From Escherichia phage outra: 64,000 bases of DNA. A program made the translations under genes and the position numbers. Every line of letters begins with the position of its first letter. The stretch's first letter is position 1. The DNA lies in the sequence record MN850645.1. One strand, 5' to 3'. Under the pieces are notes generated by a model. That model was not told where the DNA came from. It saw nothing but the letters and a program-made list of their open reading frames with translations, and searched no databases. Below are positions 8,813 through 31,998 of the stretch, piece by piece.

Positions 8813-9178
8813 TTAAACGTTTTCTAAATCTTTTAAGGCATTACCCAACGTTAGAACAATAACATCGTTTGCTGCCTCTTCCCCATTGATATTGGTGAAA
8901 TTTGGTGTGACAAAAGTAACCATATAAAACTCGTCCACCTGGAAGACAGCAATAACACCATCCATCTTAACATCTTGACGAAAGGAAAAACCAATCATCT
9001 TCTCTTGCAAAGGCATATCCCCTTCCTTCATTACCGCCAGGGAGTTTTCAGGAATGTTATATTTATCTGATCCGATGTAGATGTACGTAATGTTATCTTT
9101 ATCGTGATGATACAGGGTTGCTTTTTCCATATCTAAACCTGACAGATCAAATACGTTAATTTCTTGTGTAGTCTTCAT
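8813..9178 (-). CDS. hypothetical protein
   Basis: start moved to ATG 9178 preceded by GGGAGGA SD. Confidence 0.45.
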   Translation of the reverse strand: MKTTQEINVFDLSGLDMEKATLYHHDKDNITYIYIGSDKYNIPENSLAVMKEGDMPLQEKMIGFSFRQDVKMDGVIAVFQVDEFYMVTFVTPNFTNINGEEAANDVIVLTLGNALKDLENV

Positions 9179-9542
9179 AAATATCCTCCCAAATCCAATA
9201 ATCATCTGTGTAAGTAGGATGCCTTTTATCCCACTCTGCTCTAGCCCAAGCAACCGCTGCTACCAACACATCACCATGACAAGGTTGAGGTGCGCAGAAG
9301 CAAACTAAGTCTTTCCCTTCTAATTCTAACAAATCCTCAAGAGTGATTTTACCACAACGAATTTGTTCCCACAACCACTCTTTATATCTTTGTATAGTTG
9401 ACCCTCGTGGTTCATCATCCTTTAACTTAAAAGGATTTGCAAACTTTGAGGCTTTTAACCCCATATGAGGCATAGCTCTGCCAATGTAAACTGCACCTTC
9501 AGGTATTACTTTACCTAAGTGGTAAAAATTTAATACTTTCAT
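9156..9542 (-). CDS. hypothetical Cys/His-containing protein (CFCAPQPCHGD)
   Basis: track start 9566 is TTG; ATG at 9542 overlaps upstream stop (TAATATG). Confidence 0.45.
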   Translation of the reverse strand: MKVLNFYHLGKVIPEGAVYIGRAMPHMGLKASKFANPFKLKDDEPRGSTIQRYKEWLWEQIRCGKITLEDLLELEGKDLVCFCAPQPCHGDVLVAAVAWARAEWDKRHPTYTDDYWIWEDIYEDYTRN

Positions 9543-9543
9543 A

Positions 9544-9894
9544 TTAACCCAAACACATCTGTGCAATCAAGCCCTGTATAAATTTATTAGCTTCTTTACT
9601 GTCGTAGTCAGTCTCTTCTGGATATCCATCTTCATCGTACACAACTGTACCTTCAATATACCCTGCCTCAATTAAGGCGCGGATCATATCAAATTGCCAG
9701 CATGAGTTACCAAATGGACGTTTACCATTAAAACACTCTTCTTCTCTCCATAACGTAGAGAGTAGTTGTCGGAAATATTCCCGTACAGTGACAGTACCAA
9801 GATCTGAATCCTCAAACATAACATCCAGGGCATCAGGATTGCTTTTCTCTACGTAAGGAATATATTTAACACCATTAATAGTTACATCAAGCAT
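9544..9894 (-). CDS. hypothetical protein (116 aa)
   Basis: ORF in operon orientation. Confidence 0.5.
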   Translation of the reverse strand: MLDVTINGVKYIPYVEKSNPDALDVMFEDSDLGTVTVREYFRQLLSTLWREEECFNGKRPFGNSCWQFDMIRALIEAGYIEGTVVYDEDGYPEETDYDSKEANKFIQGLIAQMCLG

Positions 9895-10257
9895 TTATTT
9901 CTCCTTATCATCATATTCTAGGAACATATCTGCACGATATGCTTTACGCTCTTCAAACTTAGCAGGATCTACAACAATAAGCAATACAAGGTTAACATCT
10001 AAATACTTTTTAACAAATAGAAATAAATCTTTTCCACAGTTAAAACCTACACCAGTATAGGCATCCCCATATTGATCTACTGATTTAATCTTCTTACTAA
10101 CCGTACATTCTATGCTATTCTTTTCTTCTTGGTATAAGGCTTTCCCACCCCAATATGTAAAGAATTTAGTACCGTCAGCACCAAGTTTAAAACCTTCTGT
10201 TGCATGTCCAGCAAATGAAAGTAAACATAACCAAGTAATCATCAGGTACTTTAGCAT
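9895..10257 (-). CDS. putative secreted protein with signal peptide
   Basis: MLKYLMITWLCLLSFAGHA N-terminal hydrophobic signal; GGGTGG SD before ATG 10257. Confidence 0.5.
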   Translation of the reverse strand: MLKYLMITWLCLLSFAGHATEGFKLGADGTKFFTYWGGKALYQEEKNSIECTVSKKIKSVDQYGDAYTGVGFNCGKDLFLFVKKYLDVNLVLLIVVDPAKFEERKAYRADMFLEYDDKEK

Positions 10258-18369: not shown

Positions 18370-18921
18370 ATGCGGATTACTGATAAGTATGTGTTCTTCT
18401 TCTCGGCAAAAGATGAATTTAGCAACTGGTATCTATCATCTTTTATTGAACCTTTAGCTCCCAAGTATAATAATTCTATTACAAGTTCTGTTGAATTTAC
18501 TTGTGTGGAACAATATATGATGTGGAGAAAAGCATGTTTGTTTTATGATTACAACATTGCATCTTCTATTTTAACCGGAGATCTAAGATATACAGGAGAA
18601 AAAGAACAGGCATATTATAAGCGACTAGGTAGATTAGTTAAAGATTACGATGAAGCTACTTGGACTTCTTTACGGGAGAAGATTGTCAAGCGTGGTTTGT
18701 ATCTTAAATACACACAAAATGAAGATCTCAAAAATAAACTTATCGCTTACGCAGATAAGGAGTTCGTAGAGGCAAGCCCTTATGATTCTATTTATGGTAT
18801 CAAAATGGGAATGTGGGATCGTGATGTGGAAAATAAGGACTGTTGGAAAGGACAAAATCTTTTAGGAAAATGGCATACAGACCTTGCTGTTTATCTAAAA
18901 GCACAATCTGATATTTCCTGA
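18370..18921 (+). CDS. NADAR-family (YbiA-like, DUF1768) protein
   Basis: FFFS..DEFSNW, EQYMMWRKA and FVEASPYDSIYGIKMG blocks match the YbiA/NADAR pattern; ATG overlaps upstream stop (TAAATG). Confidence 0.65.
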   Translation: MRITDKYVFFFSAKDEFSNWYLSSFIEPLAPKYNNSITSSVEFTCVEQYMMWRKACLFYDYNIASSILTGDLRYTGEKEQAYYKRLGRLVKDYDEATWTSLREKIVKRGLYLKYTQNEDLKNKLIAYADKEFVEASPYDSIYGIKMGMWDRDVENKDCWKGQNLLGKWHTDLAVYLKAQSDIS

Positions 18922-19136
18922 TATTTTGAAAATTTTTATTTTTATAAAAAGGGGTGTGGGTTTCATGTACGGAAATCCACCCTCTGAATAATATATCCAG
19001 AGTAAATATTATTCTGTACTCTGTTAATAAAGTATTTAATTTGTTTGTTTGACTATGGTATCTGATCTTTAAAAGGCATACTATCTCTTAACTACTACTT
19101 ATAACAGAACAGTAAAATCATTTTTATAAAAAGGAC

Positions 19137-19340
19137 AAAATTATTTAAAGTTTTTACAGATTTTTGGGTACAAATTTTGAAAATGAAAAGTTCAAGTTTG
19201 GTCAAAATTATTTAAAGTTTTTGTACGTATTTCTATCCAGATTTTGAAAATGAAAACTTCAATTTTTTAAAAATTCCCCAGTTTATTTAAAGTTTTTTTG
19301 CCTTTTTCCGTAGAAAAATCAAAAATGAAAAGTTCAATTT
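19137..19340. repeat. three tandem imperfect direct repeats of about 67 bp
   Basis: each unit contains TTATTTAAAGTTTTT ... GAAAATGAAAAGTTCAA. Confidence 0.7.
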
Positions 19341-19363
19341 CGTGTTTTTATGGGTGTGCGTAT

Positions 19364-19472
19364 GATAATCATTTTCATTTGTAAATGAGAATCATTATCA
19401 TTTAAGTATGTAAGTGATAATCATTCTCAGTAAGAGAATGAGAATCATTAGCAAATGAGAATTTTCTCATTT
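19364..19472. promoter_or_regulatory. cluster of Fur-box-like palindromes (AATGAGAATCATTATCA etc.)
   Basis: 19384-19400 matches 14/15 of the E. coli Fur consensus core ATGATAATCATTATC; further GATAATCATTCTC-type palindromes at 19416-19472. Confidence 0.5.
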
Positions 19473-19734
19473 AGAGAATAACGCGCAGGGGCGGTGTTTG
19501 TCTCGCGCTCCCGTGTCCCCTCGCCATACAATAAGAATAGCATAACCAACAACAAAAGCAAGCGATTATTTTTATCTTTACATTTCTTTACAAATTTATT
19601 TTAGACGAGCTACCGGCGATCAACCTTCCAACCAGTAGTGCCCTGGTATGTTAGCCCCGCCTTTACGCCGTGGGGGTGGCGCTTCCTCTTCTGTATGTAA
19701 AACAGTATAAGCCCGATCCCTGGGCTTGTCAAGA

Positions 19735-20001
19735 TTATTTTTTGTTTTCTTGCCAGGATAGGACACCTAGCCAAAAATACATGTCGCCCCGCGCCCCTGG
19801 CGGGATCTTGCTTTCCCCGCCGCCACTGCAAGCCCATAGATAACCATTTGCGAACGTATCAAAATGATCTATTTCTTCCACCTTATGATCGCCCAGGTTG
19901 AGAACGGTTTCAACCTTTAAGCCCGTTGCGCTTGCTACCTGGTGCACCGTGCCGCCTTGCCAGCCTAATGAGTGCATGAGGTGTAAAGTAGTATTTGTCA
20001 T
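19735..20001 (-). CDS. hypothetical protein (88 aa), GC-rich, divergent from island
   Basis: ATG 20001 with AAGGG SD; possible minus-strand promoter TTGCTA-18-TATTAT at 20049-20078. Confidence 0.45.
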   Translation of the reverse strand: MTNTTLHLMHSLGWQGGTVHQVASATGLKVETVLNLGDHKVEEIDHFDTFANGYLWACSGGGESKIPPGARGDMYFWLGVLSWQENKK

Positions 20002-20112: not shown

Positions 20113-20141
20113 TTGACGTTCCTCACCTGGTAGCGTATTAT
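20113..20141 (+). promoter_or_regulatory. sigma70-like promoter
   Basis: -35 TTGACG 20113-18, 17-bp spacer, -10 TATTAT 20136-41. Confidence 0.55.
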
Positions 20142-20268
20142 TCATCTTGTCGAGGGGGGCGAGGCACAACGACAATAAACAAAAGGAGGGCGCAATGCAG
20201 GACGGGCAAAGGTGAGGATCTCCACAATCCACCGTCACAATAACATTACTTATAAAAGGTTGATAACG

Positions 20269-20364
20269 ATGATCAAGAAAGAAAACAGCTTGACGGTTGG
20301 AACGATTAACGCTATCATTCTAGCCGTTCCATTTTGGATTGTAGTAGCGGTTATTATCTTTTAA
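20269..20364 (+). CDS. hypothetical membrane peptide (31 aa)
   Basis: hand-translated; hydrophobic; weak SD. Confidence 0.25.
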   Translation: MIKKENSLTVGTINAIILAVPFWIVVAVIIF

Positions 20365-20372
20365 AAATATTC

Positions 20373-20428
20373 TTGACAACGTTTTTTAATCTGATAAGAT
20401 GTATCACATAGGGCGGCAATAGTGCCGC
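20373..20428 (+). promoter_or_regulatory. sigma70-like promoter plus type-B leader hairpin
   Basis: -35 TTGACA 20373-78, -10 TAAGAT 20395-400, hairpin GCGGCA-ATAG-TGCCGC 20413-28. Confidence 0.6.
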
Positions 20429-20452
20429 TCATAACAGAAGAGAGAAATAATC

Positions 20453-20725
20453 ATGGCATCATATAGCGCATCAATGATCGTAGCTGGCATCACTGGTAAA
20501 CCTATGCGCGGTGGCGGATCTTTCGCTAACATCAATATTGATGGGCGTTTATCCCTGGATGCAGCGATCACCGTGGCACGGGAAACATTTAAAAAAGAAT
20601 GTAATTTCAATAAACAAGATTATCTCGGCTTCGTTATTGAAAAAACCGCGCGCTTTGTGGATTATAAAAGCCCGAAAATGATCGACACTACACTAAAAGC
20701 GCAAGATGTAGCGTTTTTGCTTTAA
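20453..20725 (+). CDS. hypothetical protein (90 aa)
   Basis: ORF downstream of promoter/hairpin cassette; host-like codons. Confidence 0.55.
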   Translation: MASYSASMIVAGITGKPMRGGGSFANINIDGRLSLDAAITVARETFKKECNFNKQDYLGFVIEKTARFVDYKSPKMIDTTLKAQDVAFLL

Positions 20726-20728
20726 GGC

Positions 20729-20789
20729 TTGACACTTAAAAATAATTTTGTAATATATACCACATAAGGCGGGGAAATGGTTTCCCGCC
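20729..20789 (+). promoter_or_regulatory. sigma70-like promoter plus type-A leader hairpin
   Basis: -35 TTGACA 20729-34, -10 TAATAT 20751-56, hairpin GGCGGGGAAA-TGG-TTTCCCGCC 20768-89. Confidence 0.6.
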
Positions 20790-30292: not shown

Positions 30293-30496
30293 CCTAAATA
30301 AAGATGATAGCTTTTACCTATCAAAAACGTTCACCGAAAAAAGTGAATAGATCGCGGTATCGAGCTAATCAGGGAGCAGATGAACAACCATACCATGAAG
30401 ATCATAAGGCGCTTACAACGGCTTTTAGACCGCTTATTTTTAATTTCTTCATGCAACTATCTGGCAAAAACAGCCTTTTTCTTGTCTTTCCTCTTA

Positions 30497-30570
30497 AATG
30501 ATAATCATTCTTATTTATAGCTGATTATTTATGCAATAAACTGCATAATGCAATAATGATAATCATTCTT
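30497..30570. promoter_or_regulatory. two Fur-box-like sites (AAATGATAATCATTCTTA; AATAATGATAATCATTCTT)
   Basis: GATAATCATT core shared with Fur consensus. Confidence 0.45.
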
Positions 30571-31424
30571 AACTTATGACCATCTAACCTATAAAATAAT
30601 AAGCTATCTAACTAAATTAAAACTAATTATCTCACCTTTATTTATAACTTACTGTTACTATCTCATTGATAACCTTATATTAAACAACAATAACTAATAT
30701 AAATCATTACTAAGCTAAATATAATCTATCTAACCTTTAAAACTATAACTATAATCTATCGAATTGTTGCACAAAGTAACTATTAAATTGTTAGTAACAT
30801 TGCTAAATAATTAATATCCTATCTATTTATGATCTAATCTTTACCTTCCTATTTATTACCTAAATAACCATTTCATATAGTAATTATTTCATACAATAAC
30901 TATAACAAGAAACATAATTCGCAAGCGTATCATTAGCAGCCTATGCCGGACACATAGGCGGCTAATAATAACGCAACTACACACCCCACATAATAACCAT
31001 CACCGATAGTTATTATTTGTGCTTATGTAGCTTGCAACAATTGCAAGCGCAACAATATACTAAGGTATATTGTATCCCTTACATTGTTGCGGTGCGTTAT
31101 TATTAGCTAATGTTTAGAACATTGGCTATAATATAAGCTGCATATAATAAGCTATTCAATAATAAACATCGTGAATAATGACATTGATGATCATAATGCG
31201 CCACCCTCCAGGGGGCGCTATGTGAACACAAAGAAATCTTTCTTATCAAGAAAATATTATCACTATTGCGCAAAATTATTTACATCTGAATAGATGATTT
31301 TTCATACTATTATTGTTATTTGTTGAGCATAGTTATAGCCTATTTGTTGAGCCTACTTTCTTAAAAGCGCAATAAATCAGAATTATCTTGATTTTTAGTG
31401 CGTTTTATAGTATAGAAAATATGC

Positions 31425-31443
31425 AAATGATAATCATTATCAG
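31425..31443. promoter_or_regulatory. near-consensus Fur box (AATGATAATCATTATC)
   Basis: 16 contiguous bases identical to positions 4-19 of E. coli Fur consensus GATAATGATAATCATTATC. Confidence 0.55.
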
Positions 31444-31607
31444 CTATCTTCCACGGGTAGCACTATTTCACGCCAGATCATTTCATTTGGCAAGGTGTAT
31501 ATAGATGTTTAGACTTGCCAAGTTATTGATTTACTTAGAATTTATCTATTTTGTTGTGAGTAGTACCTTTCTTGCTTAGAAAATAATCAAAAGTCTTATA
31601 AGTCATT

Positions 31608-31640
31608 GAATGATAATACAAATGATAATTATTCTCATTG
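31608..31640. promoter_or_regulatory. Fur-box-like tandem site (TGAATGATAATACAAATGATAATTATTCTCATTG)
   Basis: repeated GATAAT hexamers and palindromic half-sites. Confidence 0.4.
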
Positions 31641-31998
31641 ATATTTGAGGGGGACGGTCGGCAGAAATCGGGGGGTGCTGAAAATCGCGTTAAGCACCTC
31701 TCGCAAGCGAGCAGTATTTTGCGGCAAGTTATTGATATTATTGGCTTTACGCTTATGAAAAGGGGGTGTGTCGAAATAAAGCGGGTATACCGGAAAATTT
31801 TTGTGGCATAGATATTTATTTGTCTATATTATGTACAAAGGGGTGTGTTAAAAATATTAGGTATATATAGAATAATTGATAGGGAAATCCTATACTAATC
31901 CCTCCATTAATGATGTTTCTATGTTACTGTTCTTGTAATAGATGAAAAGACGCTGTATGATGTGTGGCATGAAACGTAAACTTATAAAGGAGTCTGAT

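Follow-up and report, generated by a model that had tools for sequence, protein, structure and literature searches.

We propose that the three tandem direct repeats at 19136-19345 of the window, by which we mean the whole 64,000-nucleotide stretch that was analyzed from a phi92-like E. coli myophage (Justusliebigvirus; genome ~148 kb), would lie at the heart of a control region that is free of genes and essential in cis. That the array is an essential cis-acting element is the best reading of the evidence, the essentiality being taken solely from published data on the homologous locus of phage Bas54. Each unit carries two conserved boxes at a fixed distance, which would constitute a two-part binding site and are probably read by a phage-encoded, lineage-specific DNA-binding protein. 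We tentatively favor the view, to which we give somewhat less than even weight, that the units are the iterons of a phage replication origin. The gene-free region is carried by more than 360 sequenced genomes, and the rV5-, phAPEC8-, and phi92-related phages are widely used as broad-host-range therapy candidates.

Architecture of the array

Three units in one common orientation occupy 19136-19345, where an initial annotation had placed three direct repeats; the uniform spacing of ~67 bp given there holds for the first interval (67 bp) and not for the second, which measures 75 bp. Each unit consists of a 16-bp box A (ATTATTTAAAGTTTTT), a variable spacer of 23 bp, and a 21-bp box B (GAAAATGAAAAsTTCAAnTTT), and the offset from the start of box A to that of box B is exactly 39 bp in all three. 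Specifically, unit 1 (19136-19202, plus strand) has box A at 19140-19155 (ATTATTTAAAGTTTTT), the spacer at 19156-19178, and box B at 19179-19199 (GAAAATGAAAAGTTCAAGTTT); unit 2 (19203-19277, plus strand) has box A at 19207-19222, the spacer at 19223-19245, and box B at 19246-19266 (GAAAATGAAAACTTCAATTTT), followed by a linker that is 8 bp longer (ttaaaaattccccag); and unit 3 (19278-19345, plus strand) has box A at 19282-19297 (TTTATTTAAAGTTTTT), the spacer at 19298-19320, and box B at 19321-19341 (AAAAATGAAAAGTTCAATTTC). The motifs singled out by the annotation recur exactly, TTATTTAAAGTTTTT at 19141, 19208, and 19283 and AAAATGAAAA(G/C)TTCAA at 19180, 19247, and 19322, except that the base preceding AAAATG is G, G, and A rather than T or C. 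A repeat search found a 79-nt register three times, at spacings of 67 and 75 and with 72% identity. Tandem Repeats Finder, the kind of check that had been suggested, recovered units 1 and 2 only (19136-19266, period 67, 81% matches, score 178) and missed unit 3 because the linker between units 2 and 3 is 8 bp longer.

The six boxes of the three units form one locus per genome. Box B has no further copy at ≤2 mismatches in the 64-kb window, where box A has just two look-alikes elsewhere, each with 2 mismatches, and a search at ≤3 mismatches through the remainder of the ~148-kb genome, made in phage ESCO8 (99.9% identical), gave no real second copy of either box. As had been described, the array has a NADAR gene (18370-18921; Pfam E 2e-36) on its left and Fur-box-like sites, clustered at 19358-19452, on its right, and it is indeed free of genes, in that no plausible ORF crosses it and the sole ORF is one of 36 aa with a TTG start on the minus strand. 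The 11-bp periodicity of AA/TT in the array falls in the top 0.1% of windows, and such unusually strong phasing is what would be expected of bent or wrapped DNA.

Conservation of the layout and divergence of the boxes

The repeats are present in 55 close relatives at 97-99.6% identity and, in a comparison that the initial annotation had called for, at constant copy number, and they were found in every deeper lineage examined. The layout of 16 + 23 + 21 bp is kept in all 25 intact units of nine Stephanstirmvirinae lineages, with a relative entropy per position of 1.36 bits in box A and 1.13 bits in box B as against 0.51 bits in the spacer and 0.34 bits in the linker. Spacings of 66/67 and then 72-77 bp persist across genera in which a neighboring protein has ~64-74% identity, as does the long, CCCCAG-bearing linker between units 2 and 3. 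Among seven close genomes there are no variable sites in the 111 bases of the boxes, compared with four in the 91 bases of spacers and linkers, 23 in the 218 bp of the leader (18922-19139), and 12 in the 111 bases at 19342-19452, which comprise the gap between unit 3 and the Fur cluster and the cluster itself. The boxes are under purifying selection.

The Vequintavirinae phages PBES02, Mydo, BIS47, and Bas54 also have three units each, with the array at the equivalent place, at spacings of 74/67 (Mydo and BIS47), 78/63 (PBES02), and about 65/74 (Bas54). Their boxes are quite different (GGTTCTCGATCG, 27 bp, ATCGTATT) and their units are not AT-rich, and their arrays are followed by Fur boxes and a GC-rich element just as in the Stephanstirmvirinae. 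A CTTTACAnTTCTTTACA box also lies beside the array in Mydo, BIS47, and PBES02, whose arrays are enriched ~4-fold in GATC, and is lacking in Bas54. That Klebsiella phages of the two subfamilies differ in their boxes argues against a host protein as the reader, and since the boxes vary between subfamilies while the geometry and the host-factor sites stay constant, the reader is most likely encoded by the phage and specific to the lineage.

No functional description of these repeats was found in the literature, and the sole annotation is an unlabeled 'repeat_region' in phages inny and alia. The published genome map of rV5 contains an unexplained and uninterpreted 'non-coding' box (PMC3606486), which is a possible counterpart of the array locus. 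In several entries the GenBank record starts near the array locus, at a frequency compatible with chance.

Insertion intolerance of the homologous locus in Bas54

HIDEN-SEQ transposon data exist for Bas54 (MaxBurger, Vequintavirus; 10.1101/2025.11.20.689424, Extended Data Table 8); it should be noted that the figures are given per annotated ORF rather than per site, and that Bas54 belongs to another subfamily. Three small ORFs, bas54_0100 to bas54_0102, overlie the homologous locus, which has GATATTT repeats, three units, Fur boxes, and a GC-rich element in the same order as the window phage, with wholly different box sequences. The ORF over units 1-2 (bas54_0100) was hit at one of three TA sites with ~5 reads, versus ~150-600 in neighboring genes; that running from the second half of unit 3 to the Fur boxes (bas54_0101) was hit at none of 11 TA sites and was scored Essential; and that over the Fur boxes and the GC-rich element (bas54_0102) was hit at five of 15 and was scored Strong fitness defect (10.1101/2025.11.20.689424). 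The neighbors 0096-0099 and 0103-0109 are all 86-100% saturated (10.1101/2025.11.20.689424). The Bas54 homologue is therefore intolerant of insertions while its neighbors are dispensable, and bas54_0100 to bas54_0102 overlie a non-coding element and are probably not genes, one of them having been scored as an essential protein gene of unknown function. The initial annotation would have been undone by repeats absent from relatives and without phenotype; what was found is an array present in all lineages examined, with a Bas54 homologue almost free of insertions.

A second insertion-free non-coding region lies ~10.6 kb away in the 136-kb Bas54 genome (10.1101/2025.11.20.689424). By position it would match 30.5-31.9 kb of the window, between which two regions there is no nucleotide similarity. 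This part of the window is the site of the terminal repeat of the close relative BME3, a direct repeat of 342 bp (PMC12210895) that maps to 31423-31764. If, as its position suggests, the second region corresponds to the terminal repeat, the array would be left as a candidate for the remaining essential role in cis, that of the origin. The '2-kb insertion-free intergenic region' of the HIDEN-SEQ text is bas54_0134/0135, a locus different from the array. The sole essential gene of the Bas54 terminal block, bas54_0110, has no homologue in the window.

The terminal repeat also bears on the last of the three functions that had been suggested for the repeats, namely iterons of an origin, which is the leading though unproven reading, a stack of promoters, and packaging repeats. 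Three tandem promoters in the manner of T7 A1-A2-A3, or pac/cos repeats, would suit a threefold repetition in AT-rich DNA directly before an early-looking gene block. We nevertheless give either of them very little credence, for the BME3-type terminal repeat is ~12 kb from the array, no -35/-10 pair is conserved in register with the units (a single 9/12 match lies on the minus strand of unit 2 only), and boxes confined to a single locus of the genome do not represent a class of phage promoter.

The Bas54 data also weigh against a centromere-like site for partition in a carrier state, at which a partition protein would bind the bipartite units much as at P1 parS. In its favor, the array is a repeated, bipartite element that occurs once per genome, and a survey of E. 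coli isolate assemblies reports Phapecoctavirus and Justusliebigvirus as persistent non-temperate phages (10.1101/2024.12.31.630880). However, according to the same survey plasmid functions were sought when such phages were classed as virulent (10.1101/2024.12.31.630880), no gene of ParA, ParM, or TubZ type adjoins the array, and a partition site would be dispensable for lytic plaques, yet the Bas54 homologue does not tolerate insertions. We regard partition as highly improbable.

Elements flanking the array and the regulatory alternative

Beside unit 1 lies an AT-rich leader (18991-19135) of low stability and poor conservation that is a candidate unwinding region, and the 200-bp segment 18988-19188 is the third least stable of its size genome-wide (nearest-neighbor dG, top 0.5%). 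Farther out, a hairpin at 18951-18983 on the minus strand, followed by UUUUUAUAAAAAU, marks the end of the NADAR operon and is also, with moderate support, a putative intrinsic terminator at which transcripts running leftward out of the array would stop. Its minus-strand RNA fold has a free energy of -11.8 kcal/mol (z -1.6), the counterpart in Citrobacter phage Tr1 is similar, and an A-run followed by a GGGG hairpin is found at this far side of the array in nine of nine lineages. The genes around the array encode an AAA ATPase (2 kb upstream), a CapR/T5orf172 protein, the NADAR protein, and, immediately adjacent, a conserved protein of 88 aa with a confident all-alpha model (pLDDT 93), for which a structural search gave no significant fold match and whose gene is missing beside the Vequintavirinae arrays.

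Adjoining unit 3, four Fur-box-like sites (19358-19452) match GATAATGATAATCATTATC at 15-16 of 19 positions, the background frequency of at least 15 of 19 matches in the genome being 7e-5, and such a cluster stands beside the array in all Stephanstirmvirinae and Vequintavirinae loci that were read. In the interval between this cluster and the putative promoter P_L is a conserved GC-rich element (19476-19530, minus strand; GAATaACGCGCAGG...GAGACAAACACCG on the opposite strand), which aligns in 13 lineages of the two subfamilies and has no match in an Rfam search. We infer from the sequence that P_L (19534-19561, minus strand) is a sigma-70 promoter, with the -35 hexamer TTGCTT at 19561-19556, a 16-nt spacer, and the -10 hexamer TATTCT at 19539-19534, that would send transcripts leftward into the array by way of the Fur cluster. 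Here it has merely 8/12 hexamer matches and is absent from the list of the sigma-70 promoter scan; its position is kept with better hexamers in Tr1 (TTGACC-16-TAATAT), in a Klebsiella lineage (TTGATC-16-TATTAT), and in PBES02 (TTGCAA-17-TATATT). Upstream of P_L the GTAAA motif is directly repeated with a spacing of 10 bp (19576-19592, minus strand; GTAAAGAAATGTAAA), which is the CpxR-box consensus, and canonical 10/12 sigma-70 promoters lie further right, at 20113-20756.

This setting at a transcription-unit boundary, beside Fur and CpxR-type sites and a conserved promoter, would also suit an array that controls transcription, as an operator or enhancer for a phage regulator of P_L or of an early-block switch, or a non-coding RNA locus. 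In the RNA variant the product itself would be a leftward transcript of ~575 nt, running from P_L to the hairpin at 18951 and containing three antisense units, and this interval stops exactly at the terminator-like hairpin, whose U-run is on the minus strand. Against control of transcription, Bas54 can do without the nearest genes to either side, so that lost regulation should not kill, and the insertions tolerated between the region and bas54_0110, the next essential gene, speak against polarity. For RNA, the units (z -2.0 to +1.0) and the array (z +0.6 to +0.8), folded as RNA or DNA, have no secondary structure beyond that of shuffled sequences, an Rfam search with E up to 1 gave nothing but one chance match elsewhere, and P_L is weak in the window phage (8/12 matches); no repeated peptide can be encoded by units that measure 67 and 75 bp. 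We consider a regulatory or RNA function decidedly unlikely.

Several known sites were sought in the units and rejected. A scan and manual registers on both strands gave no conserved sigma-70 promoter in or across the units. Box A contains TAAAGTTT, the -35 consensus of FliA, with no GCCGATAA-like -10 in the variable spacer, and a T4-late-like TATAAATA on its minus strand (TTTAAATA) lies in a box that is unique in the genome and is no promoter class. Partial matches to sites for IHF, Fis, DnaA, and BasR/PmrA, judged by consensus sequence, are not conserved across lineages. The best Fur site inside the units has 11/19 matches, within the top ~1.2% of the background, compared with 15-16 in the adjacent cluster. 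RNA or DNA hairpins, Hfq (ARN)n motifs, and Rfam families found no support.

A hypothetical origin of replication

In the mechanism that we put forward, a phage initiator would assemble on the three units as iterons and wrap the DNA, the AT-rich, low-stability leader beside unit 1 would open, and leftward transcription from P_L, which has to traverse the Fur-box cluster, would provide the activation or the priming. The context is origin-like, with an unstable 200-bp segment, P_L pointing inward, a terminator-like hairpin closing the far side, and, in three of the Vequintavirinae, the GATC enrichment noted above. Origins aided by transcription include lambda ori, T4 oriF/oriG, and the T7 primary origin. 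The array resembles iteron origins (lambda ori with its four O-protein sites, pSC101 with three iterons, P1 oriR) in being a single locus of direct repeats in the same orientation, in a repeat sequence that varies between related replicons while the layout is kept, in being, to judge from Bas54, essential in cis, and in having an AT-rich flank, adjoining host-factor sites, and putative transcription aimed inward. It differs from them in that its unit is 67-75 bp long and made of two parts, of 16 and 21 bp, that are set four helical turns apart, as opposed to iterons of 17-22 bp at ~22-bp spacing, and in that it lacks DnaA or clear IHF sites, the partners here being Fur-type and CpxR-type boxes. 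With T4 oriF/oriG and the T7 primary origin it shares a promoter, here the putative P_L, that fires into an AT-rich stretch ending at a terminator, but these origins need no sequence-specific repeats and each is dispensable, whereas here conserved boxes dominate and the homologous region is seemingly essential. Among the gene products of the relative rV5 are a T7-type gp4-like primase-helicase and a family A DNA polymerase (PMC3606486).

Other observations bear on the proposed origin. The origin of rV5-like phages has so far not been located, and GC skew was uninformative for locating it in rV5 (PMC3606486); around the array the skew has no inflection and tracks gene orientation. No DnaA box (TTWTNCACA) occurs at the locus in six Stephanstirmvirinae or Bas54, the unit alignment of nine lineages gives no conservation for the IHF-like cores of box B, and no initiator gene was identified among the neighbors of the array. 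The AAA ATPase 2 kb upstream was considered as an initiator and set aside, its family being generic and widespread among unrelated large phages. In large virulent phages initiation is often redundant or driven by recombination, and a single essential origin is not a given. Units of 67 bp far exceed the classical iterons of 17-22 bp and the array itself is not the least stable DNA of the genome, both of which count against an origin.

An array of ~200 bp with defined boxes and geometry is nevertheless a precise, testable origin candidate. For phage engineering, it marks a segment to be left intact and might supply phage-dependent plasmids with a minimal origin.

Possible relationship to the injection stop signal of T5

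The main rival to the proposed origin is a checkpoint of DNA entry like the injection stop signal (iss) of T5. Here an ~11-kb block of small, outward-transcribed early genes would enter first, transfer would pause at the Fur-box cluster, and a phage protein, either virion-borne or a product of the first segment, would hold or restart it at the units on the inner side of the cluster. The likeness begins with the Fur-like cluster, which has an exact match of 22 nt to the annotated T5 iss (E 1e-6) and is 71-75% identical over ~90-117 bp in T5, Spc35, DT57C, AKFV33, and Kenya-K44. In T5 this array of motifs takes the form of the 66/67-bp DRE repeats beside the shear point at ~9.6 kb (10.1101/866236), and repeats of the DRE type (AAATGAGAATCATT...) in a large conserved untranslated region correspond to the Fur cluster and not to the three units. 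The counterparts of the units would be the T5 DRD repeats (eight or nine copies of TGTGCAAATCCGACA), which are at the equivalent relative place. The T5 iss, which is Repeat Region 3 of the left terminal repeat (annotated at 9140-10149 in NC_005859), lies ~8% from the genome end within a 1.5-1.7-kb untranslated, repeat-rich region that is better conserved than its surroundings, and it has the same Fur-box-like AAATGAGAATCATTATCATT array with lineage-specific short direct repeats just inside. Here the array lies ~12.1-12.4 kb, or ~8%, from the BME3-type terminal repeat, compared with a first-step segment of 7.9% of the genome in T5; the untranslated, repeat-rich stretch is ~1.5 kb long, with an array far more conserved than the flanking non-coding DNA; and the small genes of the terminal block are, as in T5, read toward the end from strong sigma-70 promoters. 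The Bas54 data, with two insertion-free non-coding regions 10.6 kb apart in a 136-kb genome, agree with an essential cis role of this kind as well.

Several differences make a T5-like checkpoint unlikely. A tblastn search of the whole genome with T5 dmp, A1, A2, and neighboring proteins gave nothing below E 0.5, the 88-aa neighbor is unrelated to T5 A2, and the paired DnaA boxes in inverted repeats that are stressed for T5 were not found. The terminal repeat measures 342 bp as against ~10 kb in T5, it comes from one PhageTerm result in a single publication, and circular permutation was described for rV5. Two-step transfer is known in T5 and BF23 only. The inner repeats of T5 are eight or nine 15-mers, whereas those here are three bipartite 67-bp units in a myovirus, and a likeness based on a repeated host-factor motif may be convergent. 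Counting against an origin, and not against a checkpoint, is the sharing of the Fur cluster with the T5 iss region, since T5 origins map near mid-genome (10.1101/866236).

A further step, which we regard as a decidedly improbable speculation, is that the region is the myovirus counterpart of the T5 iss, that two-step delivery is common to the T5-, phi92-, and rV5-like phages, and that the Fur array is the pause element. Abundant host Fur, and hence iron status, would then gate entry, and a phage protein would hold or release the DNA at the units. If true, this would recast as Fur boxes the T5 DRE repeats, which belong to an iss problem 50 years old; Davison's comparative analysis of iss makes no mention of Fur (10.1101/866236). 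The shared Fur-box array ties the region to the T5 iss and makes both the iss question in T5 and a role of Fur in infection testable. The 19-mer of the CpxR-type box at 19576-19592 also precedes sigma-70-like promoters in 47 IMG/VR contigs, T5-like terminal repeats included.

Structure and conservation of the array

The initial annotation placed three direct repeats in ORF-free DNA between the NADAR gene and the Fur-like cluster. This is borne out, as both motifs are exact in every unit (U1, 19136-19202; U2, 19203-19277; U3, 19278-19345) and the array lies inside a 1.5-kb stretch without credible ORFs. TTATTTAAAGTTTTT (within box A) occurs at 19141, 19208, and 19283 and AAAATGAAAA(G/C)TTCAA (within box B) at 19180, 19247, and 19322. 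Each unit comprises box A (16 bp), a spacer (23 bp), box B (21 bp), and a short linker, with the same register from A to B throughout. Because the box centres are ~41.5 bp or four helical turns apart, the two boxes lie on the same DNA face. Box B repeats the core of box A (TTTAAAGTTT) in degenerate form, with AAAA-NN-AAAA ahead of it. AA/TT steps recur with a strong period near 11 bp in the array (top 0.1% of windows of equal size), a pattern that bent or wrapped DNA would show. A repeat search gave three 79-nt copies with spacings of 67 and 75, Tandem Repeats Finder reported the first two units only (period 67, score 178), and the only prior annotation, made in phages inny and alia, is a "repeat_region" without a label. 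Box B has no further match in the 64-kb window at ≤2 mismatches, box A has only two look-alikes there, each with 2 mismatches, and the remaining ~85 kb of the genome, read in the 99.9% identical phage ESCO8 at ≤3 mismatches, holds no real second copy of either box. The idea of a stack of promoters is not supported: the promoter scan and the lack of conserved hexamers in the unit alignment speak against sigma-70 promoters, and the uniqueness of the boxes speaks against a phage promoter class. Nor are the units Fur sites (best score inside the units, 11/19) or a structured RNA, since neither strand of the array has secondary structure beyond shuffled controls and an Rfam search gave no match.

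Within the Stephanstirmvirinae, the three-unit array is present in nine lineages (phi92-like, phAPEC8, phiWec179, Citrobacter phage Tr1, Klebsiella phages KP2025, phi1_175008, FKP3, and KP13-26, and one IMG/VR contig) with spacings of 66/67 and then 72-77 bp, the middle unit being degenerate in Phapecoctavirus. Information in 25 intact units is 1.36 bits per position in box A, 1.13 in box B, 0.51 in the spacer, and 0.34 in the linker, and identity between lineages is 86, 75, 50, and 45%, respectively. The units align one-to-one across genera and retain their own flanks, such as the common CCCCAG ahead of U3, and hence the triplication is older than the split of these genera. Copy number, for which a comparison among relatives had been suggested, is constant in 55 close relatives. 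Far from being absent or unconserved in such relatives, which together with no phenotype on deletion would have spoken against the suggested roles, the boxes show no substitution in 111 bases among seven close genomes, compared with 4 in 91 spacer and linker bases, 12 in the 111 bases of 19342-19452 (the U3-to-Fur gap and Fur cluster), and 23 in the 218-bp leader. The array is thus real, ancient, and under strong purifying selection.

A larger element with lineage-specific boxes

The array is embedded in a larger element whose eight parts have the same order in every lineage. From left to right these are the upstream gene's stop codon, accompanied by direct repeats of TGATATT, a hairpin with a U-run on the minus strand, an AT-rich leader of 150-200 bp, the three units, three to five Fur-box-like sites (here 19358-19452, 15-16/19 matches), a conserved GC-rich element, the sigma-70-like minus-strand promoter P_L, conserved in position and directed back at the array, and the 17-mer CTTTACATTTCTTTACA. 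The GC-rich element (19476-19530), whose core reads GAGACAAACACCG on the minus strand, is conserved in two subfamilies and is non-coding, given that lineages differ in it by frame-shifting indels; it has possible hairpin covariation and no Rfam match. The hexamers of P_L (19534-19561) vary by lineage with a 16-17-nt spacing kept, and the promoter is weak in this phage (8/12 matches).

The NADAR stop codon falls within the direct repeat CTGATATTTC / CTGATATTTT (18909-18926), and GATATTTG, another conserved cis motif, occupies this position in two to four copies in every member of the Stephanstirmvirinae and Vequintavirinae examined, whichever gene is upstream. The leader of Phapecoctavirus and Mydovirus contains TTATCTCAAA three times (L013 8669-8790, L014 8460-8580, L063 1955-2075), and that of this phage has a single degenerate copy, CTATCTCTTA (19081-19090). 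The 17-mer at 19576-19592, GTAAAGAAATGTAAA on the minus strand, is a perfect direct repeat GTAAA-N5-GTAAA, the CpxR-box consensus. Phage contigs of unrelated types, 47 of them in IMG/VR, contain the 19-mer CTTTACAyTTCTTTACAAA, which usually sits ~5-15 bp ahead of a sigma-70-like -35. In T5-like phages it lies inside the terminal repeats, around the pre-early promoter P-H22. This suggests that many enterobacterial phages use an envelope-stress regulator at early promoters.

In the Vequintavirinae PBES02, Mydo, BIS47, and Bas54 the parts follow the same order, likewise with three units, spaced 74/67 in Mydo and BIS47, 78/63 in PBES02, and ~65/74 in Bas54. These units have two boxes, GGTTCTCGATCG and ATCGTATT, at a fixed distance and with no resemblance to box A; the CTTTACAnTTCTTTACA box is present in all but Bas54, and the Fur boxes and GC-rich element are identical in kind in all four loci. 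Klebsiella phages have one or the other box type according to their subfamily. This combination of constant host-factor sites with lineage-specific boxes at constant geometry leads us to infer that the boxes are probably recognized by a protein that the phage encodes and that co-evolves with them. GATC, which the boxes carry, is ~four-fold enriched in three of the four Vequintavirinae arrays examined, those of Mydo, BIS47, and PBES02, with 5-6 Dam sites in ~210 bp of array versus ~7-8 per kb across the locus (L063 2088-2300, L064, L062 2083-2290). This is reminiscent of SeqA-sequestered origins, whereas the phi92-like array has no GATC.

Insertion intolerance of the homologous region

Three tiny ORFs cover the homologous region of Bas54 (MaxBurger, MZ501093; L066 2727-3316 = MaxBurger 81475-82064), for which a HIDEN-SEQ transposon map is available (10.1101/2025.11.20.689424). 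In bas54_0100 (units 1-2) one of three TA sites is hit, with ~5 reads versus ~150-600 in neighbouring genes; bas54_0101 (from mid-unit 3 to the Fur boxes) is called Essential with 0/11 sites hit; and bas54_0102 (Fur boxes and GC-rich element) is called a Strong fitness defect with 5/15. The surrounding genes 0096-0099 and 0103-0109 are all 86-100% saturated (10.1101/2025.11.20.689424), and polarity is an unlikely cause because the stretch separating the region from the next essential gene (0110) tolerates insertions. The three ORFs are probably not protein genes, yet that study includes one of them in its set of essential genes without known function. The counterpart of the array is probably essential in this related phage, which belongs to a different subfamily and was mapped at the resolution of annotated ORFs. 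A transcriptional operator array, or a leftward non-coding RNA of ~575 nt, would explain the lethality of insertions poorly, and we regard this reading as quite unlikely.

The insertion-free intergenic region of ~2-2.5 kb described in the authors' text is another locus, bas54_0134/0135 (10.1101/2025.11.20.689424), 10.6 kb beyond the array-homologous region. Its position makes window 30.5-31.9 kb the probable equivalent, although nucleotide comparison of the two gave no similarity. The 342-bp terminal repeat reported for the close relative BME3 (PMC12210895) maps there, to 31423-31764, and a packaging-related role for the units is not supported. Of two insertion-intolerant non-coding regions, one would thus hold the genome ends and the other would be the array region. 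Duplex stability reaches its genome-wide minimum in this second large gene-free region (30500-31945), at 30559-30759 (80% AT). Fur-box-like sites form two clusters bracketing the ~11-kb small-gene block (19358-19452; 30494-30570 with 31423-31441 and 31612-31642), and the best of the genome (17/19 matches) starts at 31423, the first base of the BME3-repeat equivalent.

A possible role in replication

We tentatively propose that the units are iteron-like assembly sites of a phage replication origin, one of the options raised initially. It is the leading reading because the element is single-copy, fixed in geometry yet lineage-specific in sequence, and probably essential in cis in the Bas54 homologue; the array also adjoins DNA that ranks among the genome's three least stable stretches, and the conserved putative promoter P_L points into it with a terminator-like hairpin closing it. 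Transcription from P_L would run into the array and end at this hairpin. However, no initiator was identified, the units contain neither DnaA boxes nor conserved IHF sites, and they are unusually long for iteron-type origins. In rV5, skew analysis failed to locate the origin (PMC3606486). The main rival, a DNA-entry checkpoint like the injection stop signal (iss) of phage T5, we consider rather unlikely. In its favor, the Fur-box cluster is the same motif array as the DRE repeats in the annotated T5 iss (NC_005859 9534-9715), with a 22-nt exact match and 71-75% identity over ~100 bp in many T5-like phages. Both regions are ~1.5 kb, untranslated, and repeat-rich, and border a block of small outward-transcribed genes; the array region would also, like that of T5, lie ~8% from a genome end if the BME3 repeat marks this end. 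Both have lineage-specific direct repeats just inside the Fur array (DRD 15-mers in T5, the three units here). Nevertheless, the likeness through the DRE array is a feature of the cluster adjoining the units, and A1, A2, and dmp homologues, DnaA-box inverted repeats, and a long terminal repeat were not found. Davison's analysis of the iss region does not mention Fur (10.1101/866236). A partition site would accord with the reported persistent carriage of these phages and is highly improbable. The array, whose function had no prior description, is best filed as a candidate iteron-type origin element; the T5-like checkpoint is an alternative to be taken seriously and would be the more surprising one.

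Neighbouring genes

On the left, the array is flanked by a plus-strand operon of an AAA ATPase, a CapR/T5orf172 protein, and NADAR (end 18921), and on the right by a small minus-strand gene (19735-20001) and then many small plus-strand genes with strong sigma-70 promoters. The minus-strand gene encodes an 88-aa protein (phrog_19316) kept across Stephanstirmvirinae with 38-50% identity between genera. Its AlphaFold model is confident (pLDDT 93) and all-alpha with five helices, structural comparison gave no significant fold match, and residues 19-38 resemble a helix-turn-helix in sequence pattern; as a candidate for the unit-binding protein it is only a lead. Four sigma-70 matches at 10/12 (20113, 20290, 20373, and 20729) precede the first small plus-strand genes, and such an arrangement of one promoter per small gene (20113-20756) typifies early host-takeover blocks. 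Over the 3 kb surrounding the array, identity is 99.9% with Escherichia phage vB_EcoM_ESCO8 and 96-98% with ~50 other Justusliebigvirus genomes (Stephanstirmvirinae) besides phi92, inny, alia, and Paula, which fall in the same range. Four GenBank records named "Campylobacter phage" with host Campylobacter jejuni (MG065639, MG065645, MG065656, and MG065689) share ~99% identity over the array with this group of E. coli phages and are probably mislabelled or contaminant.
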